Part shown: in pieces, positions 31,526 to 63,821 of the stretch
Position numbering within the stretch: position 1 is the first letter of the stretch
Layout of the letters: every line of letters begins with the position of its first letter
Origin: Polyangium mundeleinium
GTDB lineage: Bacteria > Myxococcota_A > Polyangia > Polyangiales > Polyangiaceae
DNA: 64,000 bases
Direction of reading: 5' to 3'
Assembly (NCBI RefSeq): GCF_028369105.1
Contig: NZ_JAQNDO010000001.1
Coordinates: 1,843,711 to 1,907,710 of the forward strand
Notes under the pieces: model-generated
What the model was told of the DNA's origin: nothing
The model's database searches: none
The model's input: the letters and a program-made list of their open reading frames with translations, nothing else
Position numbers and translations under genes: made by a program

Positions 31526-31541
31526 GCCGGACCGGCTCCAT

Positions 31542-31681: not shown

Positions 31682-32872
<1,191 letters not shown>

Positions 32873-32878
32873 CGAGGC

Positions 32879-33079: not shown

Positions 33080-33140
33080 TCAGATCCGAAGTAGACGAAC
33101 TGCTCGGCTCGTGGCATCAGTCCCGGGTCGAGCAGGTTGA

Positions 33141-33216
33141 AGGGGTATAGCTCAGCTGGTAGAGCAGCGGATTCCAAATCCGCAGGTCGGGAGTTCGAGC
33201 CTCTCTGCCCCTGCCC
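33141..33216 (+). tRNA. tRNA-Trp (anticodon CCA)
   Basis: Acceptor stem AGGGGTA/TGCCCCT and anticodon loop TTCCAAA. Confidence 0.9.
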
Positions 33217-45794: not shown

Positions 45795-45846
45795 GGTGCA
45801 GGGGAGGGGGGTCGTCGTCGCCGACGGCCTCCTGACCCCTTCGATG

Positions 45847-45888
45847 CACGCCCGCCCTGTCTTCAGGCGCGGGCGTGTGTTTTTTGTT
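45847..45888 (+). terminator. Rho-independent terminator after rpoC
   Basis: 9-bp GC stem CACGCCCGC/GCGGGCGTG with a 13-nt loop, followed by TGTTTTTTGTT. Confidence 0.7.
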
Positions 45889-45992
45889 CGGCCAGGTACG
45901 CGCCGTCCCGTGCTGATCCGCCGGATGACTGCTGTTTCGGCGGGTCTTGGGATACCCCGTCCTTGCGGACATGTACTATCTCTGCACTCGCG

Positions 45993-48170: not shown

Positions 48171-48331
48171 CGGGCGTTCCATCTCCGAGCTCGTTCTCGT
48201 GTTCTCCCGCCATCACCCGATCCGGGCGCGTGGCGACGCGTAGAATCGAGGAACCACGCGCTTTCATGGGGTCGCGCGTGGCGAAGCATCCTCGCTCGGC
48301 GCTGCCGGGCACTTGCCCTCGGAGAACCGCG

Positions 48332-49708
48332 ATGAAGCTCCTTCGCGCCCTCGCCTTGTCGTTGCCTTTCCTCGTGGTGCCCGCCCTGTACGCGACCGAT
48401 TCGAATGCGTGCGGCGGCTGTTTCATCAGCCAGCAGGAAACCACGCAGGTCACGGGCCACCGCATGGTCCTTTCGATCTCGAACGATCGCACGACCCTTT
48501 GGGATCAAATTACCTACGCGGGTGATCCCGCCTCGTTCGCCTGGCTCTTGCCGATCAAGGGGCAGGTCGACATCGGACTCTCGTCCGACGCCGTCTTCAA
48601 CGCGCTCGAACAGGGCACCCAGGTCTCGGTCCTCTCGCCCTCGATCAACTGCCTCCCGTCGGACTGCGTGGGCGCGCCGAACGCTGGCGGGGACGGCAGC
48701 GGCGGCACCGGCGGCGGGACTGGGGGCGTCGAGGTCATCGCCGAGGAGGTCGTCGGCCCGTACGCGACCGTGCAGCTCTCGTCGCAGGATCCCAATGCGC
48801 TCGCGAACTGGCTGCTCACGAACGGCTACAACATCCCGCCCGACATCAAGCCGATCGTCGACGCGTACGTGAACGAGGGCTTCGACTTCCTGGCCCTCAA
48901 GCTCGTGCCCGGCCAGGGCATCAACTCGATGCGCCCCGTGCGTGTCACCTCGCTGGGCGCGCTCCCGGTCCTGCCGCTGCGCATGGTCGCCGCGGGCACG
49001 GGCGCGATCACGCCGATCACGTTGTGGGTCCTCGCCGAGGGCCGCTACGAGCCGACGAACTTCCCGAGCTTCCAGATCAAGGCCGCGGATCTCGTGTGGA
49101 ACTGGGACACGCAGTCGAGCAACTACAAGGACATCAAGCAGCAGAGCTTCGACGCGTCGGGCGGCAAGGCGTGGCTCGTCGAGGCGGGCGAGCCGCTCTC
49201 GCGGTACTGGATCGAGGACAGCCTGAAGTACACGGCCGAGTTCGACCCGGAAAACAGCGGCTACGGCGGCGATCCGATGGGCCCGAGCGCGCTCGACGAG
49301 TGCATCGAGGACCTCGACGCGCTCTTCGGCTCGATCCCCGAGAACAGCCTCTGGGTGACCCGCATCCACGCCGAGCTCTCGCGGGCGGCGCTCGCGGCTG
49401 ACCTCACGCTGGGCGCGTCGAACGACCAGTCGTACGTCGAGCGATGGCTCCAGGTCTCGAACGCCGTGGGCACGCCGCCCGCGTGCCCGCCGCCGCCGGA
49501 CTGGTGCGTCGACCCGGGCACCGAGCCGGGCACCGACCCCGACCTGAACCCCTGGGACAACGGCTTCGGCGTGGGCAACGACGACCCGAACCTGGGCCAG
49601 GGCAGCGGGAGCTGCGCTGTCGGCGGCGCGGCGAGCATGCCCGCGGCGCTCGGGCTCCTCGGCGGCGCGATGCTCCTGTCCGTCGCGCGTCGCCGTCGAC
49701 GTCGTTAG
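48332..49708 (+). CDS. DUF2330-like secreted protein with MYXO-CTERM-type C-terminal sorting signal
   Basis: Signal peptide. C-terminus GSCAVGG...LLGGAMLLSVARRRRRR (Cys, hydrophobic helix, poly-Arg). Confidence 0.7.
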   Translation: MKLLRALALSLPFLVVPALYATDSNACGGCFISQQETTQVTGHRMVLSISNDRTTLWDQITYAGDPASFAWLLPIKGQVDIGLSSDAVFNALEQGTQVSVLSPSINCLPSDCVGAPNAGGDGSGGTGGGTGGVEVIAEEVVGPYATVQLSSQDPNALANWLLTNGYNIPPDIKPIVDAYVNEGFDFLALKLVPGQGINSMRPVRVTSLGALPVLPLRMVAAGTGAITPITLWVLAEGRYEPTNFPSFQIKAADLVWNWDTQSSNYKDIKQQSFDASGGKAWLVEAGEPLSRYWIEDSLKYTAEFDPENSGYGGDPMGPSALDECIEDLDALFGSIPENSLWVTRIHAELSRAALAADLTLGASNDQSYVERWLQVSNAVGTPPACPPPPDWCVDPGTEPGTDPDLNPWDNGFGVGNDDPNLGQGSGSCAVGGAASMPAALGLLGGAMLLSVARRRRRR

Positions 49709-49933
49709 TCCCGAGGGGAACGCCTCGCGTCCCCCTCTCGTCCGGGCAAAGCCCGGCCGATTCACCCCCTAGAGGCGAGCTCGCTTCGCGACCTCGTGTG
49801 GTTTTCCTGGTCGTCTTCCACCGCCGCCCGCGCGATTTTTTCGCGGATCACGCGTCTTGTCGTTTCGTTCGGGTCGCCCTAGCCTCTTTTGCAGGCGTGG
49901 ACCGCGACCCAGCGGCCGCGACCCGGAGGAAAC

Positions 49934-50869
49934 ATGTACGGTCCCAAAGGTCAGAGCAGCGGCGCTGGTCGTCCGCCTGCAGCCCCGAAGAAGGTCACCG
50001 TTCCGGACATTCGCGCACGGAAGGCAAGTGGGCCGCCGATCGCGATGGTGACGGCCTACGACTTCACGATGGCGCGCCTCCTCGACGAGGGCGGCGCGGA
50101 CATGCTGCTCGTCGGTGATTCGCTCGGCATGGTCGTGCAAGGGCACCCGACGACGTTGCCCGTGACGGTCGAGGAGATCTGCTACCACGGCCGCGCGGTC
50201 GCGCGCGGGGCGCGGCGGGCGCACGTGGTCGGGGACATGCCGTTCATGAGCTTCCAGGTCTCGTCCATGCAGGCCCTGGAGAACGCGGGCCGCATGATGA
50301 AGGACGGCGCGTTCGAGAGCGTGAAGCTCGAAGGCGGCGAGGAGATCGCCGAGCACGTGCGCCGCATCGTCGCGGCGGGCATCCCGGTGTGCGGGCACAT
50401 CGGGCTCACGCCGCAGTCCGTGCACGCGATGGGCGGCTTCAAGGTGCAGGGCAAGGGCGAAGAGAACGCGGCGCGGCTCGTGCGCGACGCGCAGGCGCTC
50501 GACGAGGCCGGCGCCTACGCGATCGTGCTCGAAGCGATCCCGCCGGATCTCGCGGAGGAGATCACGGCGGCCGTGTCGGTCCCGACGATCGGCATCGGCG
50601 CGGGCGCGGGGTGTGATGGGCAGGTGCTCGTCTGTTACGACATGCTCGGCATGTACCCGGATCTGCGCCCGCGCTTCGCGAAGCGCTTCTCCGAGGTGGG
50701 CGAGCAGATCATGGCGGCGACGCGGGCGTACGTGGACGAGGTGCAAGCGCGCACGTTCCCGGGCGCCGAGCACAGCTTCAAGCCGAACGGCCCGCGCCGC
50801 ATCACGCCGCCGGCCGAGCCTGCGGCGGCGGCGCTGGAAGAGATTCCTCCGCACTGGCAGACGCATTGA
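49934..50869 (+). CDS. panB: 3-methyl-2-oxobutanoate hydroxymethyltransferase
   Basis: MVTAYDFTMARLLDEGGADMLLVGDSLGMV... SD GGAGGA. Confidence 0.9.
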   Translation: MYGPKGQSSGAGRPPAAPKKVTVPDIRARKASGPPIAMVTAYDFTMARLLDEGGADMLLVGDSLGMVVQGHPTTLPVTVEEICYHGRAVARGARRAHVVGDMPFMSFQVSSMQALENAGRMMKDGAFESVKLEGGEEIAEHVRRIVAAGIPVCGHIGLTPQSVHAMGGFKVQGKGEENAARLVRDAQALDEAGAYAIVLEAIPPDLAEEITAAVSVPTIGIGAGAGCDGQVLVCYDMLGMYPDLRPRFAKRFSEVGEQIMAATRAYVDEVQARTFPGAEHSFKPNGPRRITPPAEPAAAALEEIPPHWQTH

Positions 50870-50917
50870 GGTTGGGTCGCGAGGGCGGGCCTGCGCGCCC
50901 GCCCCGCGCGTCCGGCA

Positions 50918-51928
<1,011 letters not shown>

Positions 51929-51970
51929 GTCCCCACTCCTCCGAAGCAAGGAGCGCGATGCTACCGCGGT

Positions 51971-54004
51971 TCAGGCTGGCGTGGACGCCGAACCCTCGCG
52001 CTTTTGCCCCACCGCGCGCAGGAACAGCTCCAGCACGGCGAGGACGAGCAGCCCGAGCGCAACATAAGGCGACGCGTCAATCGAGGGCACGACCCCGCCG
52101 AGCTCCTCGGCGCGCGCCGCGTCGATCACGCGCCGCGGCCGCAGATCGATCTCGCGCTCCGGCACGGTCGCGACCCGCACCGCGCGCTCGCCGTCGAGCC
52201 GCACCTCGTACCGGCCCTGCAGCGGCGCCACGGCGCGACGGCGGCCGTCCTGCTCCACGACCGGGATCGGCCGCCGCGCCTCGCCCGCGCGCACCGGCAA
52301 TCGCTCGATGGCCACGTCCTTGAACCCGTCGAACGTGAACGCGTCGCCCACGTCGATCTGCCGCGCCCCGCCCCGCGCTCGCGCCGTGCCCACGAACCGG
52401 TCCAGCAGCGCCAGGAAGGCCGGCCGGAGCACGAAATCGCTCTCGTCCACGGTGAGCGGCAGCGAGAGCGCGAAGACGGCGCCCCGGCCGAGCGAGCGGC
52501 GCAGCAGCAGCGGCGCGCCGTCGTCCCAGCGCGCGAGCACGTCCGCGTTCGTCGCGGCGGCCGGATCGAAGGACGCGCGCCCATCGGGCGAGAGCTTCGC
52601 CAGGCCTTCCGCGCTCGGGCCGAAAAACACCGCGCTCGTGGCATCGGCGCCCTGCGACGGGCTCGGCCCCCAGCGCACCACGCCCGGCATGAGCGGGTCG
52701 AACCCTGCGCCGAGCGGGGCCGTCGCCGCGCGCGGCCCGAACGTCAAGAGCAGCACGCCCCCGCGCTCCACCCACGCGGCGAGCGAACGCCGCCCTTCCG
52801 GCGTGAAGCCCGGCACGTCGTCCACGATGAGCCCCGCGAACGCCGCGAGCTCGTCCGCGTGGTCCGGCACCGCGGGCAGGGGACGCACCTCCGCGTCGAG
52901 GTGCATCGCCGCGAGCGCCTGCTCGATCGGCGGCGGCCCGCCTGTCGCCACGTGGGTCGAGGCCACGTCCACCACGACCGCGATCGGCAGCGCTCCGCCG
53001 GCCGGCACGACCGGCGCCTCGTCGTCCTCCAGGATCGCGTCGCCCGGCGTCAGCCCGACCGTCAGCTCCTCCGGCGCGCCTTCCGGCACGTCGAGCGCGA
53101 CCTCCTCGGCGCGGACCGCGGCCCCGAGCGGCGCCGACGTCAGCACCTTGCCCCCGGCGCGCAGCTCCACCGCCCGACCTGCCGAGGCCGAGATCCCCGC
53201 CGCGCCCTCGCCCGCCGCCCGCGTGTCGGGGCTGCACACGACACGCGCCCGCACCTTGCCCGCGCGCAGATCCGCCCGCGTCACCGCGCAATCGCTGCCC
53301 GAGGCCACGAGCTCCGGCAGCGGCGCCCAGAGCGTCGTATCCGAGCCGCCGCCGAGGGGCAGCGCGTTCGGCGCCCCGTCCGCGAGATCGCTCAGCAGCA
53401 CCACGCGCCGATCGGCGTGCGGCACGCTGCGCAAAAGCTCCCGCGCCAGGGCCAGCGCGCCTTCCAGATCGGTCGCGCGATCGGACGGCTCGATCCCCTC
53501 GAGCGCGCCCGTCACGGCCGCCATGTTCGTCGTCGACGCGAGTGCCACCCGCGCGGGCGCGCCCCCGAGGACCACGGCCACCGCATCGCCGCTGCGCAAA
53601 CCCGTCGTGAGCTCGCGCGCCGACGCGAGTGCCCGCTCGAACTTCGTCCGTTTCCCCGGCCCGCCTGCCCCGCCTTCCAGCGGCGCGCGCATGCTCAGCG
53701 AATCGTCGATCACGATCGCGAGCGCCACCGACGCCCCGTCCCTCCGCGCTAGCCCGAGCCGTGAGCACCGCACGAACGGCGTCGCGCCGAGCACCGCGAG
53801 CATCAGCACGCTGAGCGCCCGCACCACGAAGAGCGAGCGATCCTCCAGCATGCTCCGCCGCCGGGCCATCGGCTTCGTCGCCGGCACGAGCTTCGCGGGC
53901 GGGAAGGGTTGCTCCTCGGCTTGCCTTCGCCGGAGCAGGTGCGCCGCGACCGGCGCGCCGACGAGGAGCGCCACGAGCAGCGCGGCGATCGTCGCGAAGC
54001 TCAT
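51971..54004 (-). CDS. BatA-like protein: N-terminal double-TM domain plus vWA domain
   Basis: MSFATIAALLVALLVGAPVAAHLLRRR (TIGR02226-like) and vWA VALAIVIDDSLSM. ATGA overlap with the upstream DUF58 gene. Confidence 0.7.
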   Translation of the reverse strand: MSFATIAALLVALLVGAPVAAHLLRRRQAEEQPFPPAKLVPATKPMARRRSMLEDRSLFVVRALSVLMLAVLGATPFVRCSRLGLARRDGASVALAIVIDDSLSMRAPLEGGAGGPGKRTKFERALASARELTTGLRSGDAVAVVLGGAPARVALASTTNMAAVTGALEGIEPSDRATDLEGALALARELLRSVPHADRRVVLLSDLADGAPNALPLGGGSDTTLWAPLPELVASGSDCAVTRADLRAGKVRARVVCSPDTRAAGEGAAGISASAGRAVELRAGGKVLTSAPLGAAVRAEEVALDVPEGAPEELTVGLTPGDAILEDDEAPVVPAGGALPIAVVVDVASTHVATGGPPPIEQALAAMHLDAEVRPLPAVPDHADELAAFAGLIVDDVPGFTPEGRRSLAAWVERGGVLLLTFGPRAATAPLGAGFDPLMPGVVRWGPSPSQGADATSAVFFGPSAEGLAKLSPDGRASFDPAAATNADVLARWDDGAPLLLRRSLGRGAVFALSLPLTVDESDFVLRPAFLALLDRFVGTARARGGARQIDVGDAFTFDGFKDVAIERLPVRAGEARRPIPVVEQDGRRRAVAPLQGRYEVRLDGERAVRVATVPEREIDLRPRRVIDAARAEELGGVVPSIDASPYVALGLLVLAVLELFLRAVGQKREGSASTPA

Positions 54005-54936
54005 GCGCGCGCCTCGGCCACGGCGCGCACCACCTCGCGCACCACGTCGGCGGGAGGCTTGTCCGTCGTTGCCTCGACCCAGCGACCGCCCCGCGCGGAC
54101 AGCTCCTTCGACCAGTGCTCGGCGATCCCCGCGATCCGCTCGCGATACACCGCGCGCACCTCCTCGGCGTCCGTCTCGACGACCACGTCGCCCTCGCTCG
54201 CGCGGAGCCGCACGTGCCCGGAGAAGCCGAGATCTGCCTCGTTGGGATCGAGCACCCGCACCGCGACGAGCGAGCGCCCGCCGGCCCCGAGCGCCGTGAA
54301 CGCCGAGAGCGCCCGCTCCGGCAGGTCCACGAAATCGCTCACCAGCACGATCACCGCGCCGCGCCGCGCGCGCCGCGCCACGGGGGCGAGGGCGCGCTCC
54401 ATGGCCGCCTCGTCCGCGCTCGCGTCGCCTGCCGCCGCGGCCCCTTCGAGCGCCCCTGCGACCCGGTCGAACGCCTCGCGCCCGCTCGACGCCGGCAGCG
54501 GCATGGTCCCCCGCCCGCCGATCCACGCGAGCCCCACGGGATCCCCCGTCGACAGCGCCACGCGCGCCAGCGCTGCGGCCACGAGCGCCCCGTAGGCGAG
54601 CTTCGCGCCCGGGGCCCGGCTGCTCCGGTAGGCCATCGACGCCGTCGCGTCCACGCACAGCCAGAGCGCGCGATCCGTCTCCGTCTCGAACTCGCGCACC
54701 ATCATCCGGTCGTGCCGCAGCAGCGCGCGCCGGTCGAAGAACCGGAGATCGTCGCCGGGCACGTAAGGCCGGTGCCCGCCGAACTCCACGCCTGGCCCTT
54801 TGCGCACGCTCCGGTGCCCGCCGGCGTAGACGCCTTCGGCCAGCGTTCGGGCCCGCAGGCGCAGCGGCGCGAGGCTACCCCAGTCGATGGGGATCCCGTC
54901 CGTTCCGGAGCGCTGCGAGGGGCGAAGCTCGGCCAT
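54001..54936 (-). CDS. DUF58-family protein (MoxR/Bat-operon associated)
   Basis: DUF58 core FGGHRPYVPGDDLRFFDRRA...VSDF. No MoxR ATPase gene lies upstream. Confidence 0.75.
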   Translation of the reverse strand: MAELRPSQRSGTDGIPIDWGSLAPLRLRARTLAEGVYAGGHRSVRKGPGVEFGGHRPYVPGDDLRFFDRRALLRHDRMMVREFETETDRALWLCVDATASMAYRSSRAPGAKLAYGALVAAALARVALSTGDPVGLAWIGGRGTMPLPASSGREAFDRVAGALEGAAAAGDASADEAAMERALAPVARRARRGAVIVLVSDFVDLPERALSAFTALGAGGRSLVAVRVLDPNEADLGFSGHVRLRASEGDVVVETDAEEVRAVYRERIAGIAEHWSKELSARGGRWVEATTDKPPADVVREVVRAVAEARA

Positions 54937-55004
54937 GAGGGGATCGATGCATTACCCCAACGGGAAAGGCCCGCCACGACAAAACTTGTGGCAAGGAGAG
55001 GACC

Positions 55005-55904
55005 GTGCGCGTGTTCTTCTGCGATCACGTGGAGGTCCCGCTTCCGCCTGGGCATCGCTTCCCGATGGCGAAGTACGCACGCCTGCGCGAGCGCCTGCTT
55101 TCAGCGCTCCTGCTCGATCCGACGGACCTCCAGCCTTCCACGCCCGCCTCGATCACCGACCTCGCGCGTGTCCACGCGCCGCACTACCTCGAAGGCTTGC
55201 TCTCGGGCACGCTCGACCCCCGCATCTTGCGCGCCATTGGGTTTCCCTGGTCCGACGCCCTCGTGCGCAGGTCGCGCGCCAGCGTCTCGGGCACCCTCTG
55301 CGCCGGCCGCGCGGCCCTGGAAGACGGCATTTCGGGAAACCTCGCCGGCGGCACGCACCACGCCTTCGCGGATCGCGGCGCTGGATTCTGTGTCTTCAAC
55401 GACATCGCCGTTGCCTGCCGCACCTTGCTCGACGCGGGCGACGTCCGCCGTGTGCTCGTCCTCGACCTCGACGTCCACCAGGGCGACGGCACCGCCTCCC
55501 TTTTCGGAAACGAGCCCCGCGTGTATACGGCCTCGATCCACGGCGAAAAGAATTTCCCTTTTCACAAGCAGCAGAGCGACCTCGACCTCGCGCTCCCGGA
55601 CCAGACGGGCGACGACGAATACCTCGCCGCGCTCGAACCTTTTCTCGCCCGCGCCTTCGCCGAATCGAACCCCGATTTGGTTTTTTTCCAGGGCGGCGTG
55701 GACGCCCTCGCGGCGGACAAACTGGGCCGGCTCGGCATGACGGCGGCGGGCATGCGCAGGCGGGACGAGCGTGTCCTCGGCGAGGCGCGCCGCCGCGGCA
55801 TTCCGATCGCGCTCACCCTGGGCGGTGGATATACCGATCCCATCGACGCGACCCTCGCCGCGCACGTCGGGACGTATGCGGTCGCCCGTGAGGTCTTCGG
55901 ATGA
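55005..55904 (+). CDS. Histone deacetylase-family Zn-dependent deacetylase (AcuC/AphA-like)
   Basis: GGTHHAF...GFCVFNDIA...LDLDVHQGDG...GGGY motifs. GTG start with SD AAGGAGAGG. Confidence 0.85.
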   Translation: MRVFFCDHVEVPLPPGHRFPMAKYARLRERLLSALLLDPTDLQPSTPASITDLARVHAPHYLEGLLSGTLDPRILRAIGFPWSDALVRRSRASVSGTLCAGRAALEDGISGNLAGGTHHAFADRGAGFCVFNDIAVACRTLLDAGDVRRVLVLDLDVHQGDGTASLFGNEPRVYTASIHGEKNFPFHKQQSDLDLALPDQTGDDEYLAALEPFLARAFAESNPDLVFFQGGVDALAADKLGRLGMTAAGMRRRDERVLGEARRRGIPIALTLGGGYTDPIDATLAAHVGTYAVAREVFG

Positions 55905-56257
55905 CGCCCGGACGCATCACGCTGCTCCTCCTCGCGACGTTGCTTTCGGCCTGCCGTGGCGGCGAATCGGCCGACGCGACGCCGACACCGCCCGAGACCA
56001 CGCCGTCGGCCGCGCCCTCGCCCTCGCCCTCACCCTCCATGCCGCGCCGCCCGACGATCCGCCATTACCTCGCGCGCACGGCGGAGCGATGCGAGGTGTA
56101 TTCGGTCGACCGGGACGCCGTCTCCCCGGCCACGCGCACCCCGTGCCCGCCGGATTTGCAGATCGGCGAGCGCATTCGTGTCATGGGGAAATCGTGCATG
56201 CGGGAGGGGAGCACCGAACGGACGCAGCCGGTGGTGTGTCCGGGGGCGCTCTTGTAA
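55901..56257 (+). CDS. Small hypothetical lipoprotein
   Basis: Lipobox LLSAC. ATGA overlap with the deacetylase stop. Confidence 0.45.
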   Translation: MTPGRITLLLLATLLSACRGGESADATPTPPETTPSAAPSPSPSPSMPRRPTIRHYLARTAERCEVYSVDRDAVSPATRTPCPPDLQIGERIRVMGKSCMREGSTERTQPVVCPGALL

Positions 56258-56836
56258 GTAGGCGGCGCGGGCCGCCGACGGTGGATGGCGGGGGCTCCCC
56301 GAATCGAATCGTCGAAACGGTCATGTTTCGCGCGTCCGCCTCTTGTTCTGCCGCCGAACGAGCTTCGCCTCCCCTGGGGGCCCGCCGGCTCTCGTCCCCG
56401 AACGCTTCCCGGTTCCCCGGCCGCCCCCTGTTTCGCGGCAAGCTGTGACCGTCGTCGCGTCCGCCTCCTGTTTTGCTCCGTGAGCCTGTCGGCTCGACCT
56501 CCGGACGGGGATTTTTTCGCGAAACAGCCCCGGGCTTGTCTCGCCGGCCGGCCGTTGTTTCCCGCAACCACGCCGGGACGCGGCCGCAATCCATTGTTGT
56601 TTGCGCCTGAAGCGAGGCGGACCCGCGGACCAATCCTGTCCTGTCGCAAAACGAGTCCCGGCCCGCCGCGCACCTCCTTGTTCGGCAGCCGAACAGGACC
56701 CGTCTCCGGAGGGCGGAGCCAGTCGGGGTTGCTTCGAATGAGGTGTTCGGCGTGGCTTGGCTGTATCGTGAAGATGCGAGCGCCTCATGGGCTCGCTGGT
56801 GGATGTCCTTGGGGCTTTGGGCGTGGGAGGGTGCGC
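56258..56836. promoter_or_regulatory. 579-nt noncoding region with five TGTTT(C/G)(C/G)CG boxes, a TTTCGCGAAA palindrome and three ~32-nt direct repeats (CGCGTCCGCCTCYTGTTYTGC...)
   Basis: Boxes at 56324, 56429, 56515, 56556 and 56598. Long repeats at 56331-56363, 56452-56484 and 56667-56697. No convincing ORF. Confidence 0.35.
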
Positions 56837-57358
56837 ATGAAACGGATCGTCATCGGGGTGCTGCTCGTTTCGATCGCTCTGCCTGCGCCTGGGTGCACGG
56901 AGGACAAGTGCAAGAATCCGGCAAAGAGCAGCGACCGGATCAGAAACATCTGGAGGGATGGGGATGCGATCAAGTGCAACGCGGTCGTGACCTGCCCCGG
57001 TCATGGCGGGCGCCCGGACAACAGGTTTGCGCTTCAGGGCCTTGAGGATCCCACCACCATCGACCAGCATCGCGATGACTGGAACGAGGGCCATTGCAAG
57101 CAGAAGGTCTGGGACCAGCCGTGGTGGAACCCCGAGTGCACGGTCGTGGTGTCTCCGGCGATCAGTTGCCTCGATGTGGATGGGGGATCAGGTGCGCCTG
57201 GGCCCACGCCCACGGGAGGGACCCTGGTCACGGTCGGCGTCGGAGCGGGAAGCGGGGACTACTGGATCACCGAGCAGGGGGTGGGTGGCGCGGGGGGCGT
57301 GGGCGGCGCTGGAGGGTTCAGCGAAGAGCCCGGGGAGGCTGGGCACGGCGGAGAGTAA
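56837..57358 (+). CDS. Small lipoprotein with Cys/Trp-rich core and Gly-rich C-terminus
   Basis: MKRIVIGVLLVSIALPAPGC lipobox. SD GGGAGGG. It lies within the conserved ~47-nt leader also found at 60713. Confidence 0.55.
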   Translation: MKRIVIGVLLVSIALPAPGCTEDKCKNPAKSSDRIRNIWRDGDAIKCNAVVTCPGHGGRPDNRFALQGLEDPTTIDQHRDDWNEGHCKQKVWDQPWWNPECTVVVSPAISCLDVDGGSGAPGPTPTGGTLVTVGVGAGSGDYWITEQGVGGAGGVGGAGGFSEEPGEAGHGGE

Positions 57359-57880
57359 TCACCGCTCAGGAACCGCGCCGGACGAGCCTGAAAGTGGCGA
57401 TTGTCCCGTGGCCTCCCGCAACCTGGCGTACCAATCCGTGCCCGTGAGCGCGGGGCAAAGCGACTCCGTCTTGGTACGAAAACAAGCCAGGAATTCCTGC
57501 TGGTCGATGTTCCTCGACTGGTGCTTTTGTTGCAGCGAATCCTGGCAGCGAGTCCCGGCGATATCGGTGTCGCGCCAGAAGCGAGCCCCCTGCATGTCTT
57601 CGCACGAGGCGCAAAAGACCGGGTCAAGCCCCGTGCAAGGCACCTTCTCCGGGCAGAACGACAGGACGCAGCTCGCCAGGCATGCGTCCATGTACTCTTC
57701 GGTGACGACACGACAATCAACGTGCGTGCAGTACCCCTCGGTCAGCTCTGCGAGGTCCTCGCAAATCTCTTCACGGGTTTGGCCCGTGCCCCTGGGCTCC
57801 CCCCGATACGCCCCCAGCCCCACGGTGACCAGCGCGACGGCAGCGACGGCGATGGCGATGTACGATCCGCGGCGTTTCAT
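57359..57880 (-). CDS. Secreted/membrane-anchored Cys-rich protein, paralog 1
   Basis: N-terminal TM/signal IAIAVAAVALVTVGLGAYRGE. 11 Cys. Shared motifs GARFWRD, TRC, CFRTKTE..CPALTGTDW. The ~60-nt conserved upstream leader is duplicated in the paralog. Confidence 0.6.
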   Translation of the reverse strand: MKRRGSYIAIAVAAVALVTVGLGAYRGEPRGTGQTREEICEDLAELTEGYCTHVDCRVVTEEYMDACLASCVLSFCPEKVPCTGLDPVFCASCEDMQGARFWRDTDIAGTRCQDSLQQKHQSRNIDQQEFLACFRTKTESLCPALTGTDWYARLREATGQSPLSGSSGAVPER

Positions 57881-57960
57881 GGCTGTCTCCCCTGGGCCCC
57901 GACGAGCCTACACCAATCCACCGGGAAAGACGAGCATCTTGCCGCGAAGCACGGGAGAGC

Positions 57961-58461
57961 TCATTGCCCCAGCGCAGTCAGCATCCGCGCGTGCCAGTCG
58001 GTACCGGCGAGCGCCGGACAACGCCGCTCGGTCTCAGTCTTGAAACAGGTGACCCATGCCTCTCGGCTGGGGGCCGGGACCTTCTCGTGAGCGACGGGCG
58101 CTTTGAGCTCGTTGCTACACCGCGTTTCTGCGTTGTTCGCGTCGCGCCAGAAGCGGGCGCCGTGCAGGTCCTCGCACGGCGCTCGCCAGATCGGGTCGGC
58201 GTTGCGGGGTAGCAATGGGGCGTAGTCCGGGCAGTACGTCATCAAGCAACCCGCCTCGCAAGCGTCGGCGAAGTCTTCCGTAATCGCCATACAATGGCCA
58301 AGATGAGCACCCTGCTCGCACATCTCGATGGCGGTATCGAGGTCCGAGAGGCAACTCTCTTCCCCCGTGTAGGGCACTTCCCCCCGATACGCCCCCAGCC
58401 CTACGGCGACGAGCGCGACGGCGGCGACGGCAACGGATAGCATCGATCGGCGGCGTTTCAT
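57961..58461 (-). CDS. Secreted/membrane-anchored Cys-rich protein, paralog 2
   Basis: About 45% identical to paralog 1 with the same N-terminal anchor, conserved Cys pattern and duplicated leader. Confidence 0.6.
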   Translation of the reverse strand: MKRRRSMLSVAVAAVALVAVGLGAYRGEVPYTGEESCLSDLDTAIEMCEQGAHLGHCMAITEDFADACEAGCLMTYCPDYAPLLPRNADPIWRAPCEDLHGARFWRDANNAETRCSNELKAPVAHEKVPAPSREAWVTCFKTETERRCPALAGTDWHARMLTALGQ

Positions 58462-58608
58462 GGCTGTCTCCCCTGGGCCCGGTGAGCCTACACGCGCCCG
58501 CCGGGAAAAACGAGCGCGCTTCGGGGCGGATCGCGTGGCACGGGCACGGGGGGCGTTCCCTGGAAAAACCGTGTCACCCTCCTGCCCCCTGCGGCAAAGA
58601 TCCCGAGC

Positions 58609-59226
58609 ATGACGCCTCGTTCGCAGTCGACCGACTTCCCCGCGGCCATTGCGGCCCTCGTCCCGGACATTCGCCAGCTCGTCATGGGTGCATTGCGGCG
58701 CCAGGGGGCGGATCCGGACCTCGCCGAGGAGCTGATTCAGGAGATCGTCATCACGCTCCTCGGTAGCGCGTCGACCTATCGTCCCGAGCTCGGCGCGCTC
58801 CGGCCGTGGGCGCATGGCGTCGCGATGAATGTGGTGAAGAACCGCCGCCGGAGCCGCGTCGGCTTCAAGGGTGGCGAACGCTCCACGAGCACACGTGCCG
58901 CTGGGCCCTTCCAAGCACCGCCCTATGGGCGTTTCTCCTCGCCGGCGCGCGCCCGGTGCCGCCTTCCCTGGCGCGCGCTGGCCTTCACGTTCCTGCGGTC
59001 CACGTGGCGGCGCAGGCGGAGACGCCGCACGCAGAGGCCCTCGCCCTTCCGGCGCTCTCCCTTGCCACCGAACGCCGCACGCCGACGCCTCCTTCGCCTC
59101 GCCGCGAGGCCCGGCCTCGGCTCCTTTTTCACATCCAGGGCATTACGCCCGGAGACGAAGGGGGTTCGTCCCGGTAATGGACGGCCTTGCAGCATGCGTC
59201 GCGCCGCGTGTACCATGCGGGGATGA
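58609..59226 (+). CDS. ECF-type sigma factor (clear region 2; Arg-rich atypical region 4)
   Basis: DPDLAEELIQEIVITLL...WAHGVAMNVVKNRRR matches Sigma70_r2. The C-terminal LPPNAARRRLLRLAARPGLGS only loosely resembles region 4.2. It is divergent from the Cys-rich paralogs. Confidence 0.5.
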   Translation: MTPRSQSTDFPAAIAALVPDIRQLVMGALRRQGADPDLAEELIQEIVITLLGSASTYRPELGALRPWAHGVAMNVVKNRRRSRVGFKGGERSTSTRAAGPFQAPPYGRFSSPARARCRLPWRALAFTFLRSTWRRRRRRRTQRPSPFRRSPLPPNAARRRLLRLAARPGLGSFFTSRALRPETKGVRPGNGRPCSMRRAACTMRG

Positions 59227-59579
59227 TTCGAGCGTTCGGGGGCCTTTCGTTGTTGGTGGCGCTCGGCGGCGTTGCGAGGGCGGAGACCGGCACCGACGCG
59301 GACGCTGCCGCGGCCGTGCGATTCGAGGCCCTCGCGACGATGGGGGACCGCGCGCGCGCCGCAGGGCGGCTCCGGGAAGCTGCCATCGCGTATGGGCAGG
59401 CGCTGGAGGTGCGGAACGATCCGCTCGTCGCGGGCCGGCTCGGCGTGCTGCTCGTGGAGATGGGCACGCCCGGGCAAAGCCGTTCGGTCTCAGAAGGTGG
59501 GAGACCTCCGGCCCCGCGGACGCGCGGAGCGAGCGAAGAGCGTGTCGGGTCTACAGGCTGGGAAAGCCGAGGAATTTGA
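59223..59579 (+). CDS. Small secreted protein, ATGA-coupled to the ECF sigma gene
   Basis: Signal peptide LVALGGVARA/ETG. It has no cytoplasmic anti-sigma-like domain. Confidence 0.4.
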   Translation: MIRAFGGLSLLVALGGVARAETGTDADAAAAVRFEALATMGDRARAAGRLREAAIAYGQALEVRNDPLVAGRLGVLLVEMGTPGQSRSVSEGGRPPAPRTRGASEERVGSTGWESRGI

Positions 59580-59625
59580 CGAGAGACGTTGTGGACCTGT
59601 ATGTCGGAGTGCGGAGGGAGGACCT

Positions 59626-59997
59626 ATGAAGCTGCTCGCAGGTCTCGGAGCGCTTTTTCTGTACGGTTCGCTCGGTGTCGCGTCGGGCGTGGGTGACATC
59701 CAGCAAGAACCGCCGCCGCCCATGTCGTTGACAACGATGGGAGCCGCGCCCACAGGAGTTGTGCCCGAAGGGGGCGCGGCGGTGCAGGCGGCGGGCTCGA
59801 CAGGACGGCGGCCCGTAATGCTCCAGGAAATGAGCGATGAGGAGAAGGAGCGACGGAGAGAGGAATGCGCAACGTTGTACGAGCACTGCTACGATTGGTG
59901 CGGGAAGGCGCACAAGCGCGGCAGTGCTGCGCTGCGGCGTTGCAATCAGGAGTGCTCGGACAAGAATACAGAGTGCATGAAAAAGATTCCGAACTGA
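59626..59997 (+). CDS. Small secreted protein with C-terminal 6-Cys module
   Basis: SD GGAGGGAGG. Signal peptide, then CATLYEHCYDWCGKAHKRGSAALRRCNQECSDKNTEC. Confidence 0.5.
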   Translation: MKLLAGLGALFLYGSLGVASGVGDIQQEPPPPMSLTTMGAAPTGVVPEGGAAVQAAGSTGRRPVMLQEMSDEEKERRREECATLYEHCYDWCGKAHKRGSAALRRCNQECSDKNTECMKKIPN

Positions 59998-60013
59998 AGC
60001 CACGGCGCACCTG

Positions 60014-60691
60014 ATGGACATCCTGACGACACGAACCCTGCGGTACACCGACGAGGGCGGCGGGACCGAGGAGGATGTGGTTCTCACCATCTTCGTGCCC
60101 TTCGAACAAGACGATGGGCAATGGTTGTGCGTGTTCGATTTCGAACCGCCCATCAAGCCAAGGTTCATGAAGGGGTGCGGCGTCGACATCATCCAGGCAT
60201 TCGTCCACTGCCTGATCTTTGCGCGCCTCTCCTTCGAAACCACACGCTGGTCGAGGACCGGCCATTGGCAAGGATTACGCGACTGCGGCTTGCCCATGAA
60301 CAAGGGTCCCTGGCCGGATCAGCCGCCCGAAATCCCACCACCCGAAGACAACCCCGGAACCCTCGAGGTCTTTGCGACCCGGAGGCTCGGCTGTCCTGAC
60401 GAAACCGGCGCAGCCACGGAGCTTCTCCTCACCGTTTTCAAGCCCTACCAGGCAGAGGGCGACACGTGGAAATGCGCCTTCGCCTTCGGTCCATCCGAGA
60501 CCGCGCCCATTCGCCATGGCACCGGAGCGGACTTCATCGAGGCCGCTCTCGACGGGCTCGCCCTGGCGCGAGCGACCTACGAAAGCATGCTGCCGAAGGG
60601 CTGGGCTCCGGCGTCGGAAAACCTCCTCGATTGTGATGACCTGCCCTTCAAAATCGGGCGGTCGTTCTGGACGGGTGGGCCGACGTCGTAG
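60014..60691 (+). CDS. Cytoplasmic protein composed of two tandem ~85-aa homologous domains
   Basis: Internal repeat VVLTIFVPFEQDDGQWLCVFDF... versus LLLTVFKPYQAEGDTWKCAFAF... No signal peptide. It starts 17 nt after the preceding gene. Confidence 0.55.
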   Translation: MDILTTRTLRYTDEGGGTEEDVVLTIFVPFEQDDGQWLCVFDFEPPIKPRFMKGCGVDIIQAFVHCLIFARLSFETTRWSRTGHWQGLRDCGLPMNKGPWPDQPPEIPPPEDNPGTLEVFATRRLGCPDETGAATELLLTVFKPYQAEGDTWKCAFAFGPSETAPIRHGTGADFIEAALDGLALARATYESMLPKGWAPASENLLDCDDLPFKIGRSFWTGGPTS

Positions 60692-60742
60692 CGCCGAGGA
60701 ACACCGCTTCGTCTCGCCGGTGGATGTCCTTGGGCTTCGGGC

Positions 60743-61641
60743 GTGGGAGGGGGCGCATGCTCGGCGCCAGACGGCTTCTGGCGCGGGGAGTGCGATCCGG
60801 ACCCGTTTTCCCCGAGCGAGCTGTGCCCGGAGCCGCAAGATGCTGGCACCGACGCCGATGCCGATAGCGACGCTGGCCTTGGCACCCCTGGTGCGGATCC
60901 CCAGTCGACGAGCTGTGAGCACGGTGGCGGTCGTTGCGTCCCGGTGCCGAGCGGCGGGGAACATGCGGGATTGTGGAGCAAGGAGCCGATCGCGTTATGG
61001 GTGGGTCCGACGCCCAAGGAAGGGGATCCGCCGCTCGTGTGTCCGAAGGGCACATCGAGCGAGCAATTCCGCCTCTACAGATGGAGGAGCCGTGCCAGCC
61101 CGTGAAGGCGGTGCCGGATTTCACGACGAAGACCGAATGGCAGACGGCAGCGCTCGGGTGTACGGCCAACCTGGACGATGATTCATGCGGTTCGCGCGAG
61201 AAGTCTTGCGTCGCGGATCCGGGGTTCGAGTACCTGCAATGTGTGCACCGGGAAGGGAAGTTCACGCTGGAGGATTGCCCGATGAACTACCGCTATGCGT
61301 GGTATGTGGGGTATCCAGAGAAAGCAGTGGACGATCGCGGGTGCGAGGCGTGCGCGTGCGGGCCCGTCGCGGGGAGTGGTTGTGTGGCTTCGGTCCGGCT
61401 CTACAACGACGCCGCTTGCGCGTCGCAGTTCGAGCAGGGCGGCCTCGCCTCCGGCTACGAGAAGTGCATCAACATCGTCGCGCCCGGCCGGGCCCTCGGA
61501 GCCAAAGCGATCACGGATCTCGCCTACGTGCCTGGCGAATGCGCGAGCAGCGGCGGCACGCCCACCGGGGCGGCGACGCGGGACGCCACCGGCGCGGTGA
61601 CGTTCTGCTGCCTCGGGCCGTTTTACCTCGACATCAACTGA
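60743..61641 (+). pseudogene. Frameshifted/decayed Cys-rich secreted-protein gene sharing the leader of the 56837 lipoprotein
   Basis: The conserved leader ATG at 60757 opens only a 36-aa frame. A protein-like reading needs the GTG frame 60743-61105 plus a +1 shift near 61040-61060 into the 60934-61641 frame (Cys/Trp/Tyr-rich, ending FCCLGPFYLDIN). Confidence 0.4.
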
Positions 61642-61746
61642 ACACGGCCCCGCGCACCTCGTGCCCGCCGGATTTGCAGATGAGCGCCTCGCTGGCCTGG
61701 GGTGCAGTATGGGGCAACGCCCGAGCTCCGCGCCTGCACGAAGCCG

Positions 61747-62060
61747 CGTGTGCATTCATGGGGCGGCCTTGTGCCTTCGTGACGGCGACGTCTGCCGCGG
61801 CGGAGCGAGTGTGTGCATTTTCACGTCGGCGCGCTGCATTCCTGCGGTCGGCGCGTGCCTCCATGGCAGCGACGTGTGCCGCCACACGTCGAGGGCCTGC
61901 CTTGGGGTGGGGCGAGCGTGCCTTCGCGGGGAGAGGGTGTGCCGTCCCACGTGGACGGCGTGCCTTGGCGGGGTGGGGGGATGCATCCGTGGGGGAGGGG
62001 GTTGCCGCGCGGGGGCGGGGGCGTGCAATCACGCGCCGGATCACGCATTCCTGGGCCGCC
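61747..62060. repeat. Degenerate ~22-nt G-rich tandem repeat array (~13 units, consensus GTGCCTTSGCGGGGWGGGG)
   Basis: Units read directly, e.g. GTGCCTTGGGGTGGGGCGAGC, GTGCCTTCGCGGGGAGAGGGT and GTGCCTTGGCGGGGTGGGGGG. There are multiple G4-capable GGGG runs and no convincing ORF. Confidence 0.5.
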
Positions 62061-62168
62061 GGGCTCGAGGCGAAGGCCAGGAGATAACGCTCCGGTCACC
62101 CCGCCCCTCCGCCCCGCAACGCCGCCTCCCCCTCCGACATCGAAACCACGATCGAGGAGGATCTTCCA

Positions 62169-63821
62169 ATGGAGCGCTGGGACACGGTCGTCGTTGGATC
62201 GGGTTCGGGGGGACTCACGGCCGCGGTCGCGCTCGCGCGGGCGGGGCAGCGCGTCCTCGTCCTCGAACAGCATTATTTGCCGGGCGGCTGGACGCACAGC
62301 TTCGCGCTCGACGGATATCGGTTCAGCCCGGGCGTCCATTACATCGGCGAACTCGGCCCAGGCCAGTCCGTCCGGGCGTTGTACGAGGGCCTCGGCCTCT
62401 CCTCGGACCTCGTCTTCCACGAACTCAACCCAGACGGCTTCGACCATTTCGTCATCGGCGGCGAGCGCTTCGACGTCCCGCGTGGCTTCGATCGCTACTT
62501 CGAGCGCCTCGTCTCCCGCTTCCCCCACGAGCGCAAAGGGCTCGAACGATACTTCGACGTCGTCGGCCGTATCGTCTCCGACACGCTCCGCTGCGAGGAT
62601 CTCCTCGCCTCGCCACAAGGCGCGCTCGCGCTCCCGTTTCGCGGAAAAAGCCTCGTCACCTGGGGCCTCCGCACCCAGCGCGCCCTCCTCGACGGCACTG
62701 TTCGCGACCCGCTCCTCCGGGGCATCCTCGCCGCGCAATCGGGCAACCATGGGTTGCCTCCCTCGCGCGTCTCGCTCCCCCTCCATGCCCGCATGATCAC
62801 CCATTACTACGACGGCGGGTATTATCCGCGCGGCGGCGCCAAGCGCATTCCGTCGGCCATGATCAAGGCCCTCCGCAAGCGCGGCGGCGAGATCCGCCTC
62901 CGCACCCGCGTCCGCCGCATCCTCGTCGAATCCGGCCGCGCGGCCGGCGTCGAGCTCGCCTCGGGCGAGCGTATCCTCGCCCGCGCCGTCGTCTCCAATG
63001 CCGACCCCGCGATCACCTTCGGCGCGCTCCTCGAATCGCCGCACGGCGAGCGCGAGCGCCGGAAGATCCGCCGCATGGAATACTCCGTCGGCCTGCTCAG
63101 CGTCTTCTGCGCCACCGACCTCGACCTCTCCGCGATGGGCCTCGATTCGGGCAATTGCTGGTGTTATCGCACCCTCGACGTGAACGGCGTCTACGAACGC
63201 GCCCTCCACGCGCTCCCCCACGGAATCGTCGAGGGCCTCTTCCTCACGGTCACCACCTTGAAGGACCCCGGCCACGCGCCGAAGGGCCACCATACCCTGG
63301 AGCTCTTCACGTTCGTCCCCTACGAACCCTTCGAACGCTGGGCCGGCAACGCCGCGGCGCGGCCCGCGGGATACCACGACCTCAAGGAGCGGCTCGGCGA
63401 CGCCATGATCGCCGCGGCCGAGCGCGTGATTCCGGGGCTCGGCAAGAACCTCACCTTCCGCGCCGTGGGCACGCCCCTCACGAACGATTTTTATTGCGAG
63501 ACCCACCGCGGCGCGAGTTATGGCACGGCGAAGATCCCCGCCCAGCTCGGCCCCTTTTCGTTCCCCATTCGATCGAGCGTCCCCGGGCTCTACAGCGTCG
63601 GCGCGAGCACGCTCAGCCACGGCGTCGCGGGCGCGGCCACGTCCGGCCTCTTCGCGGCGCGGGACATCCTCGGCCTCCGGCGCATCGAGGACCTCCTCGC
63701 CCCGTCCGACGGCTCGCTCCAGGTCGTCCTGGCCAGCGACGTCGCGCCCGCCTCCGGGCCCCGCAGGCCCGCACATGCCGCGCCTCCCGAGGACGACGCC
63801 GAGGACGCGCTCGCCTCCTGA
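62169..63821 (+). CDS. FAD-dependent oxidoreductase of the phytoene desaturase (CrtI/COG1233) family
   Basis: N-terminal Rossmann DTVVVGSGSGGLTAAVALARAGQRVLVLE and CrtI-like length. SD GAGGAGG. Confidence 0.8.
   Translation: MERWDTVVVGSGSGGLTAAVALARAGQRVLVLEQHYLPGGWTHSFALDGYRFSPGVHYIGELGPGQSVRALYEGLGLSSDLVFHELNPDGFDHFVIGGERFDVPRGFDRYFERLVSRFPHERKGLERYFDVVGRIVSDTLRCEDLLASPQGALALPFRGKSLVTWGLRTQRALLDGTVRDPLLRGILAAQSGNHGLPPSRVSLPLHARMITHYYDGGYYPRGGAKRIPSAMIKALRKRGGEIRLRTRVRRILVESGRAAGVELASGERILARAVVSNADPAITFGALLESPHGERERRKIRRMEYSVGLLSVFCATDLDLSAMGLDSGNCWCYRTLDVNGVYERALHALPHGIVEGLFLTVTTLKDPGHAPKGHHTLELFTFVPYEPFERWAGNAAARPAGYHDLKERLGDAMIAAAERVIPGLGKNLTFRAVGTPLTNDFYCETHRGASYGTAKIPAQLGPFSFPIRSSVPGLYSVGASTLSHGVAGAATSGLFAARDILGLRRIEDLLAPSDGSLQVVLASDVAPASGPRRPAHAAPPEDDAEDALAS

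Follow-up and report, generated by a model that had tools for sequence, protein, structure and literature searches.

The window analysed here is a stretch of 64,000 nt from Polyangium mundeleinium, whose genome has a G+C content of about 68-70%, and the subject of the analysis is a 579-nt spacer (56258-56836) that separates two plus-strand lipoprotein genes, lipo1 and lipo2. Before the spacer lie a gene of the HDAC family and lipo1, a pair kept in all relatives; because the lipo1 start overlaps the HDAC stop, the two genes are probably an operon. After it, lipo2 is the first gene of a variable region that has a low G+C content at third codon positions (GC3) and reaches to about 62087. Between the two lipoprotein genes, nine degenerate units of about 42 nt (39-44 nt each) stand head to tail at 56330-56706 and are followed by a 63-nt tail that does not repeat. 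This array is a previously undescribed, lineage-restricted cis element with a clear internal architecture and measurable constraint.

Each unit is centred on YTGTT, and TGTT is retained in eight of the nine. The units are about 50-60% alike, and manual stacking on the TGTT anchors gives the consensus ccgCgGCCgccCcyTGTTtcGccgcr.AAC..cgcccGGc.c. Over the nine units the period is 41.9 bp, and the autocorrelation of the spacer has self-similarity peaks at lags of 42, 84 and 125-127. Tandem Repeats Finder, at its threshold, is silent on the array because the units are too diverged. Units 1, 8 and 9 contain a 21-bp dyad, CYTGTTC-N7-GAACRGG, in which the centres of the two arms are 11 bp apart, and partial dyads are found in units 3, 5 and 6.

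The original prediction had picked out five TGTTTSSCG boxes, a perfect 10-bp palindrome and several direct repeats in this spacer. These boxes and repeats are real and well beyond chance, and the boxes are the cores of a larger degenerate tandem array which that prediction missed. Four of the boxes are exact, at 56324, 56429 and 56556 on the plus strand and at 56518-56526 on the minus strand; they are the only exact copies in the 64-kb window and all lie within the spacer, where the expectation is about 2 per 64 kb and about 0.02 per 579 nt. The fifth, TGTTTGCGC at 56598, is a near match only. The palindrome, TTTCGCGAAA, is present at 56515-56524, and three direct repeats of about 31 nt, at 56342, 56635 and 56677, are 65-74% identical. 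The 21-mer CGCGTCCGCCTCYTGTTYTGC, proposed as a triplicate repeat, has two good copies, at 56331 and 56456 (90% identity, 0.05 expected), and a weak third one at about 56666. Enrichment of the motif relative to the window background was also borne out: TGTT occurs 9 times on the plus strand of the spacer, the maximum for the window, against a mean of 0.73 per 579-nt window, and the spacer is strand-biased, with 9 TGTT vs 2 AACA.

Orthologous loci were gathered with the HDAC-family gene as an anchor and with two pattern scans. The array is intact at the same locus in six lineages, which are the six meant below: P. mundeleinium, P. fumosum (L001), a soil contig from ENA (L003, to which the JGI contig L024 is identical), Polyangium sp. 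y55x31 (L020), a Polyangium metagenome-assembled genome (MAG; L023) and P. jinanense (L018). Two further lineages, P. sorediatum (L021) and Polyangium sp. 6x1 (L002), have lost it largely or wholly. The unit-9 pattern has one site per Polyangium genome in a scan of 185,579 species genomes; the real sites among the 15 genome matches were those of P. jinanense, a new lineage, and P. fumosum, and most matches of the pattern scans were chance. In metagenomes, one of eight matches was real, the JGI contig already mentioned.

The cores are the part of the array that selection seems to hold. With core positions (TGTT) defined from P. mundeleinium alone, those positions are 88% conserved across species vs 63% for the other columns (permutation p = 0.0004). 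Base composition is not the explanation, because the T's inside cores are also better conserved than the T's outside them (0.90 vs 0.55; Mann-Whitney p = 1e-6). Conservation in units 1, 8 and 9 is seen in the arms, and the 7-nt centres vary. In unit 1, TGTT and GAAC are kept in the orthologues (with a single G-for-A in P. jinanense) and the intervening 8 nt vary, and in unit 9, where a 17-bp palindrome TGTTCGGCAGCCGAACA occupies 56679-56695, GTTC and GAACAGG do not vary among the six lineages. The other stretches invariant in all six are TGTT (unit 1), GTTGTT (unit 7), TCCTGT (unit 8), TCGG, and the CTCGAC portion of the block GGCTCGAC at 56491-56498 in unit 4. In unit 5 the conserved portion is GCRAAAC, and the T-run is found only in P. 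mundeleinium and the MAG.

Spacing is conserved as well. Unit spacing stays within 1-2 nt in the six lineages, for a total of 335-338 nt; against 80-158 substitutions per approximately 400 nt in a pair of genomes, the indel events number only 2-8, each of a single nucleotide. Core positions fall in phase if the helix is taken to repeat every 10.4-10.6 bp (R = 0.78, Rayleigh p = 0.002 at 10.5), and the phasing is absent at 10.0 or 11.0 bp per turn. The features of the locus are listed in the table below.

Table. Features in and around the lipo1-lipo2 spacer of P. mundeleinium, in window coordinates
Feature	Position	Strand	Description
HDAC-family gene	55005-55904	+	Pfam PF00850 match
lipo1, small lipoprotein of 118 aa	55901-56257	+	From open reading frame and GC3 analysis; no Pfam match
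GC-rich hairpin GGCGGC-GCGG-GCCGCC	56262-56277	+	Read directly from the sequence; 5 nt past the lipo1 stop
Unit 1	56330-56372	+	Dyad box CTTGTTCTGCCGCCGAACGAG at 56342-56362; an extra TGTTTCGCG at 56324, just 5' of the unit
Unit 2	56373-56414	+	Degenerate, without a TGTT core in P. mundeleinium; most divergent unit (P. mundeleinium and MAG 45% identical)
Unit 3	56415-56454	+	Core CTGTTTCGCGG at 56428-56438
Unit 4	56455-56497	+	21-mer CGCGTCCGCCTCCTGTTTTGC at 56456-56476, repeating the copy in unit 1
Unit 5	56498-56541	+	GATTTTTTCGCGAAACAG, which includes the 10-bp palindrome at 56515-56524
Unit 6	56542-56583	+	Core TTGTTTCCCGCAAC at 56555-56568
Unit 7	56584-56622	+	Core TTGTTGTTTGCG from 56594; GTTGTT invariant in all six lineages
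Unit 8	56623-56664	+	Box CCTGTCCTGTCGCAAAACGAG at 56635-56655; CCTGTTCTGCCGCGGAACGAT in the MAG and P. fumosum
Unit 9	56665-56706	+	Best dyad, CTTGTTCGGCAGCCGAACAGG, at 56677-56697
Conserved non-repeat tail	56707-56769	+	Includes GCTTCGAA, GYTCGGCG and TKGCTGTATCGTG
Hairpin GCGAGC-N9-GCTCGC, variable loop	56776-56796	+	In P. mundeleinium, P. fumosum, P. sorediatum and the ENA soil contig only
48-nt leader with ribosome-binding site GGGAGGG	56792-56839	+	Ends at the lipo2 ATG
lipo2, lipoprotein of 173 aa	56837-57358	+	Signal peptide MKRIVIGVLLVSIALPAPGC; no Pfam match

The tail is retained even in P. sorediatum, and homology to P. jinanense, Polyangium sp. y55x31 and the MAG stops at most about 15 nt past it. 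The hairpin that follows the tail is not part of the conserved array because of its restriction to four of the loci. The hairpin next to lipo1 resembles a terminator but has no U-tract, was not flagged by a consensus terminator scan, and is replaced in the MAG by a different hairpin at the same position.

Set against its neighbourhood, the array stands out as the part of the locus that has diverged most: it is 61-87% identical between genomes whose flanks are 88-99% identical. P. mundeleinium and P. fumosum, for example, are 93-99% identical over 10.5 kb of upstream flank that includes other intergenic regions (45800-56300), 61-81% identical across the array (56300-56800), and 92% identical again at lipo2. 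The same pattern is seen in every pair, and P. fumosum and P. sorediatum, at 99% in the flanks, are 84% identical over the array-region alignment columns they share. The array is also more divergent than the four-fold degenerate sites of the HDAC gene, and on its plus strand C>T changes are about 2-2.5 times as frequent as G>A.

The divergence is a mosaic. The MAG resembles P. fumosum in units 1-2 (0.84) and P. mundeleinium in units 3-7 (0.90-0.95), and units 1-2 of P. mundeleinium are unlike those of any other lineage (0.51-0.56), which indicates recombination between array alleles that diverged long ago. Conversion between units appears to be rare, since only 5 pairs of paralogous units share at least 9 nt; a single patch common to units 1 and 4, found only in the clade of P. 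mundeleinium, the MAG and P. jinanense, looks like conversion. Mutation, diversifying selection and allele exchange are candidate causes of the divergence hotspot.

The interpretation that fits these observations best, held tentatively and at a little under an even chance, is that 56330-56769 is a lineage-specific cis-acting DNA element, a phased multi-site array of putative protein-binding sites. It is the best fit because the cores are under purifying selection, the arms are kept while the centres vary, the arms are spaced by one helical turn and the units by four, the DNA between them evolves freely, and no RNA structure is found. We infer that the constraint is at the level of DNA and not of RNA, that a protein occupies the sites, and that the complex so formed has a role. 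Each unit would present a recognition core, CYTGTTY, which in units 1, 8 and 9 would be paired with an inverted GAACRGG one helical turn away, and because the cores recur every four helical turns they would lie on the same face of the helix. A protein that recognises this DNA sequence, probably as a dimer and through a helix-turn-helix-type domain, would occupy the strong dyads and would then spread or bind cooperatively along the weaker phased cores, to give an extended nucleoprotein complex in the spacer between the lipoprotein genes. The segments between cores would diverge quickly because they serve only as spacers whose length is constrained. Regulation of lipo2 and local structuring of the chromosome are candidate roles. 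The original prediction had suggested an enhancer-type binding-site array; conserved cores, spacing and helical phase make a binding-site array the best-fitting reading, and the enhancer-type form of it has no direct support, a -24/-12 promoter having been found neither in or after the array nor upstream of the kinase and sigma-54 activator genes that follow it in relatives.

Several points weigh against a phased binding array. The phasing is only modest evidence, because a mean period of 41.9 bp gives it automatically. Right half-sites are clear in only three to five of the nine units and the cores all have one orientation, which is also what an RNA motif or descent by tandem duplication predicts. 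Neither in the array nor after it was a recognisable promoter of the sigma-70 or sigma-54 type found, which leaves the regulatory target undefined, and a regulon cannot be demonstrated because the box is not found elsewhere in the window or in approximately 100 kb of flanking sequence from relatives. Among the open reading frames searched (Pfam searches covered 1-30.9 kb and 49.9-61.6 kb of the window) and in the flanks of the relatives, the array has no consistent neighbour that encodes a DNA-binding, partition or recombinase function. The excess of C>T over G>A suggests rightward transcription of the region and leaves room for a role at the RNA level. Finally, the array is demonstrably dispensable. 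In P. sorediatum units 3-9 are deleted and units 1-2 and the tail are kept; the deletion (L021 11350-11410) is clean, from CTGT in unit 3 to GTCTCC past unit 9, and it is recent, because the P. sorediatum and P. fumosum flanks are 99% identical. In Polyangium sp. 6x1 the whole array is absent and a kinase gene comes directly after lipo1. Two of eight lineages have thus lost all or most of the array, each time en bloc.

The promoter searches behind these statements were of two kinds. A consensus scan of 55800-57300 found no sigma-70-like promoter and no intrinsic terminator, in a scan that captures high-GC myxobacterial signals poorly, and TGTATCGT in the tail was considered as a -10 element and set aside when manual inspection found no acceptable -35 element. 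A scan for sigma-54 -24/-12 promoters (TGGCACG-N4-TTGCW with GG/GC in register, at least 9 of 12 matches) found none in P. mundeleinium in the array or within about 250 nt past it; P. fumosum and the ENA soil contig gave only isolated weak matches at non-homologous places, and none lay 5' of the relatives' kinase genes. The statement about the box rests on a hidden Markov model of the unit and a position weight matrix of the box, which recovered only the arrays themselves in the 64-kb window and the approximately 100 kb of flanks. A literature search for GTTC-N7-GAAC-type sites gave no match.

Among the alternatives, the one that survives best places the function in RNA and, although unlikely, deserves to be taken seriously. 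The spacer would be transcribed rightward, by read-through from the HDAC-lipo1 operon or as part of the lipo2 leader, and its repeated CCUGUU(Y) motifs, some of them in short hairpins, would be bound by an RNA-binding protein or ribonuclease that controls the stability, processing or translation of the flanking lipoprotein mRNAs, much as in sponge or leader RNAs built from repeated short motifs. Such an element would suit the plus-strand orientation of both flanking genes, the missing U-tract of the hairpin at the lipo1 stop, the bias of the motif (9 TGTT vs 2 AACA), the pyrimidine- and T-rich plus strand, the ability of several units to form small hairpins, and the 2-2.5-fold excess of C>T over G>A, a pattern predicted for the non-template strand under rightward transcription. 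The folding evidence weighs against this reading. Over six orthologues and both strands, folding is no more stable than that of shuffled sequences (z-scores from -1.6 to +1.3), and the RNAalifold covariation term is positive, at +2.56. Complementarity in the dyads of units 1, 8 and 9 is 75.5%, their covariation is 0.100 vs 0.098 in the shuffled control, and wobble pairs show no significant strand preference (18 G-U vs 11 A-C). Since the dyads are kept by invariance and not by compensatory change, the constraint is on sequence identity and not on base pairing. The best-conserved units hold the motif in a stem arm and not in a loop, and a period of exactly four turns of the DNA helix has no rationale in RNA.

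A structured RNA in particular was ruled out by the RNAalifold result, the fold z-scores and the pair counts in the dyads. The idea that the spacer is a small RNA locus was not supported, nor did the check for covariation-supported structure that had been proposed bring support: at the gathering threshold Rfam 15 gives only five tRNAs in the whole window, with nothing in 56000-57100 at E <= 10, and in 55800-57300 the consensus scan detected neither promoter-like nor terminator-like sites to bound a discrete RNA.

Somewhat less probable again is that the array is a decaying minisatellite with no present function. An old 42-bp tandem duplication (old because the units are only about 50-60% alike) would be drifting apart and being lost, and the apparent conservation of its cores and spacing would be a remnant or be upheld by occasional conversion between units. 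An array that is the most divergent stretch of its locus (61-87% vs 88-99% in the flanks), evolves faster than the four-fold degenerate HDAC sites, is wholly or largely gone from two of eight lineages, and is single-copy with no identifiable promoter, structure or partner gene is what such decay would leave, and the patch shared by units 1 and 4 in one clade looks like the conversion it invokes. Decay does not readily explain why, despite the age of the duplication, TGTT persists in eight of nine units and at 90% across orthologues vs 55% for other T's, or why a total length of 335-338 nt has changed by 1-nt indels only, despite up to 39% substitutions, with losses that are all-or-none. Conversion is also rare, with only the 5 paralogous unit pairs that share at least 9 nt.

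The remaining proposals are far weaker. One, a long shot, extends the phased binding array into a chromosomal "landing pad" of a kind not described before, at the border of a hypervariable locus. Here a ParB-like or other DNA-binding protein would start a filament or a sliding clamp on the phased, diverged repeats. The resulting complex might structure the chromosome locally or drive gene turnover in the variable region next to it, and the segments between cores would evolve several-fold faster than synonymous sites and be exchanged as a recombination mosaic.

A centromere-like or clamp-loading array proper is very improbable. It would be a chromosomal counterpart of sopC, or else a group of variant parS sites to which a ParB-family paralogue of altered specificity binds. 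Nine units of about 42 bp with 17-bp dyads in helical phase do recall sopC, and the outer arms of unit 1, TGTTC...GAACG, equal the arms of the Myxococcus xanthus parS consensus. The centre of the dyad is, however, 7 nt and not 6 and lacks CACGTG, and even with 3 mismatches allowed, the parS consensus TGTTNCACGTGNAACA, a 16-bp palindrome, is matched nowhere in the window. No parA- or parB-like gene occurs in the searched parts of the window or in the relatives' flanks; more broadly, no ParA/ParB, partition, replication, integrase or transposase domain was found in the open reading frames searched or in the called genes of those flanks. Nothing similar to the array is present in 72,556 plasmids or 50,697 phages, the units are highly diverged, and two lineages do without the array.

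The last, and hardly more credible, is that the array is an upstream activating sequence (UAS) for the sigma-54 enhancer-binding protein (EBP) that is encoded a few kb downstream in most relatives. Ser/Thr kinase and sigma-54 activator genes do follow the array in P. fumosum, P. sorediatum, Polyangium sp. y55x31 and P. jinanense, an exact Nla28-type half-site, CTCCGGAG, occurs at 56704-56711 (a single match, probably chance), and myxobacterial EBPs bind 2-5 tandem half-sites upstream of sigma-54 promoters (PMC9765219). The promoter that such a UAS would serve is missing: no -24/-12 element (at least 9 of 12) is found in the array or for about 250 nt past it in P. mundeleinium or the relatives, or 5' of the kinase genes. 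The genes do not follow the array either, since P. mundeleinium has the array without the kinase and EBP genes and Polyangium sp. 6x1 has the genes without the array. To our knowledge, no EBP site resembles the array in its 42-bp spacing and CYTGTT core. The NifA site is TGT-N10-ACA, and the spacing in the array is N11.

The genes downstream of the array bear on a related claim, namely that the array controls the island, and that claim found no support, as the array persists beside entirely different downstream genes and is missing from two lineages that keep the downstream genes. P. mundeleinium and P. sorediatum carry lipo2 next to it. In P. fumosum there is a lipo2 remnant and then the kinase and sigma-54 activator genes, in Polyangium sp. 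y55x31 a deletion fuses the array to the 3' end of lipo2, and in P. jinanense the neighbour is an unrelated gene of 291 aa. The Ser/Thr kinase, the sigma-54 activator and the following genes of the relatives have been lost from P. mundeleinium.

Other explanations were dismissed on a single line of evidence or a few. The spacer is noncoding, as first described, despite a stop-free frame at 56258-57358: G+C by codon position is flat across it, unlike in nearby real genes, with no bias at third positions; substitutions in the array have no 3-nt periodicity (p = 0.24 vs 1.5e-19 for the HDAC gene as a control); and indels between species are of 1 nt only and shift the frame, with lengths of 335-338 nt that do not differ by multiples of 3. 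The same three results rule out a coding repeat of 14 aa (42 = 3 x 14) in that frame, and with no codon-position signal or frame-preserving evolution a conserved small protein is not what the region encodes. There is no DnaA box (TTRTCCACA) in the window at up to 1 mismatch, which rules out a DnaA-box cluster of the oriC, datA or DARS type. A centromere or iterons of an integrated plasmid or phage were rejected on the lack of similarity in the collections and of rep, par, integrase or transposase domains in the variable-region open reading frames searched. A dispersed repeat of the repetitive extragenic palindrome (REP), bacterial interspersed mosaic element (BIME) or miniature inverted-repeat transposable element type is not apparent, with no further copy found in the 64-kb window or the approximately 100 kb of flanks. 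CRISPR arrays consist of near-identical repeats of 28-37 nt that alternate with unique spacers and are accompanied by cas genes; the 42-nt period, units only 50-60% alike and the absence of cas domains in the Pfam-searched open reading frames rule one out here.

A link to panB had also been suggested, through a 14-mer, GATTTTTTCGCGGA, upstream of that gene that has a near-identical counterpart in the array. The copy at 49834 is present and is kept in all six genomes aligned there, with a shorter T-run in Polyangium sp. 6x1. The array copy, in unit 5, is found only in P. mundeleinium and its closest relative, the MAG, and other lineages differ at that position, so the 14-mer was rejected as a shared regulatory site and the resemblance is taken to be coincidental. 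The sequence 5' of panB has a character of its own. At 49820-49882 it contains a promoter-like T-tract, TTGCCG, 17 nt and TAGCCT, nearly invariant in six Polyangium genomes, and the 14-mer stands just upstream of the TTGCCG-17 nt-TAGCCT pair.

Some further observations concern the surroundings. Five tRNA genes at 31082-33213 appear to precede a block of ribosomal-protein genes and rpoB/rpoC, judging from open reading frame sizes and an rpoC fragment with which the relatives' loci begin, and this placement would be consistent with ordinary core-genome DNA upstream of the array. The region at 56837-62087, compared with P. fumosum, Polyangium sp. 6x1, P. jinanense, Polyangium sp. y55x31 and P. 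sorediatum, is hypervariable among Polyangium species. It contains two minus-strand genes, at 57359-57880 and about 57961-58455, for paralogous cysteine-rich membrane-anchored proteins of unassigned family that both start with MKRR...VAAVALV. An extracytoplasmic function (ECF) sigma-factor gene at 58609-59226 appears to be frameshifted, with Sigma70_r2 present and no region 4 in the same frame, and its orthologue in Polyangium sp. y55x31 is likewise called as two genes. A gene for a DUF6968 protein lies at 60014-60691.

Repeats at the edges of this region are of interest for its turnover. The 48-nt leader of lipo2 is duplicated at 60713-60759 with 92% identity; the copies bracket about 3.9 kb of low-GC3 DNA, and the second is followed by an open reading frame of 54 codons. 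A shorter motif, GGTGGATG...GGGGCT, also occurs directly after the lipo1 hairpin (56280-56297). The leader and GGTGGATG repeats may be substrates for rearrangements between species. An Escherichia coli-type Chi octamer, GCTGGTGG, at 56796-56803 inside the leader is probably there by chance.

At the far end of the region, P. mundeleinium DNA at about 61707-62094, whose counterpart in relatives precedes the kinase gene, is joined directly to a gene resembling a flavin adenine dinucleotide (FAD) oxidase (62088-63821). A motif, GGCGAAGGCCAGGA(A/G)A(T/G)AACGC, which forms the 3' end of an open reading frame, recurs 5' of the kinase gene in several species, with sites at about 990-1030 and 2480-2520 in the P. 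jinanense locus, at 62054-62090 in the window and at about 13480-13500 in the P. sorediatum locus. It is also found immediately 5' of the P. jinanense array, which suggests a duplication or rearrangement that gave that array a new upstream context.

Because the array is known from only a handful of Polyangium lineages and has been lost in two of them, the stakes are modest. Its evolution is nevertheless unusual, in that the cores and unit lengths are frozen and the DNA between them is the fastest-evolving and most recombined stretch of a neighbourhood that is 93-99% identical. If a protein coats the array, a myxobacterial chromosome would offer a small natural case of a phased nucleoprotein platform with many sites, which could be used to find the binder and to ask how spacing rather than sequence is selected.

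Among known systems, the closest in layout is sopC of plasmid F, where a 43-bp repeat occurs 12 times in tandem and SopB binds a 16-bp inverted repeat in each copy; in the parS of pTAR, heptamers are spaced by integral helical turns (PMC3597684). The Polyangium array shares with sopC the head-to-tail units of 42-43 bp, the inverted repeat of 16-17 bp inside them and the separation by integral turns, and like it is noncoding and unstructured as RNA. It differs in being chromosomal, near rpoBC-panB, with no sopA/sopB or parA/parB found nearby in the open reading frames searched; in its unrelated sequence, which has no match in the plasmid collection; and in its loss from two lineages. The repeats of sopC are near-identical, whereas the units here are about 50-60% alike and show a clear dyad in three to five of nine. 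The M. xanthus parS consensus, TGTTCCACGTGGAACG, is present as 22 copies in 3 kb (PMC3899335). Its sites are clustered too, and its outer arms, TGTTC and GAAC(G/A), are identical to those of array units 1 and 9. The centre, however, is 6-nt CACGTG in parS and 7 nt in the array (for example TGCCGCC or GGCAGCC), which puts the array half-sites out of register for a canonical ParB dimer, and no par genes were found in the searched parts of the window or in the flanks. The resemblance of the arms is therefore treated only as a possible lead.

Clusters of Nla28 sites (PMC9765219) resemble the array in packing several short repeated sites into a few hundred intergenic bp, and the array has a sigma-54 activator gene nearby in most relatives. 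The array has a different core and a 42-bp period vs at most 25 bp for Nla28 sites, no sigma-54 promoter was found with it, and its presence does not track that of the activator gene. Boxes of the OmpR/PhoB type, such as the tor boxes CTGTTCATAT and the PhoP boxes TGTTTA-N5-TGTTTA, also repeat a CTGTTY or TGTTT half-site in one orientation; they are paired at 10-11 bp with 2-4 per promoter, whereas in the array nine cores follow one another at 42 bp and some have an inverted partner. Sponge RNAs of the CsrB/RsmZ type and REP/BIME palindromes likewise place many short motif or palindrome copies, untranslated, between co-directional genes. The array differs from the sponge RNAs in having no conserved GGA motif or hairpin-loop presentation, no Rfam match and no promoter-like or terminator-like bounding sites found, and from REP/BIME in being confined to a single locus in the window and the approximately 100 kb of relatives' flanks rather than dispersed. 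By these comparisons it belongs with neither parS, sopC-type systems nor sigma-54 enhancers, and the best fit by analogy is an element that would work in the manner of sopC-type centromeres or of multi-site operator and enhancer clusters.

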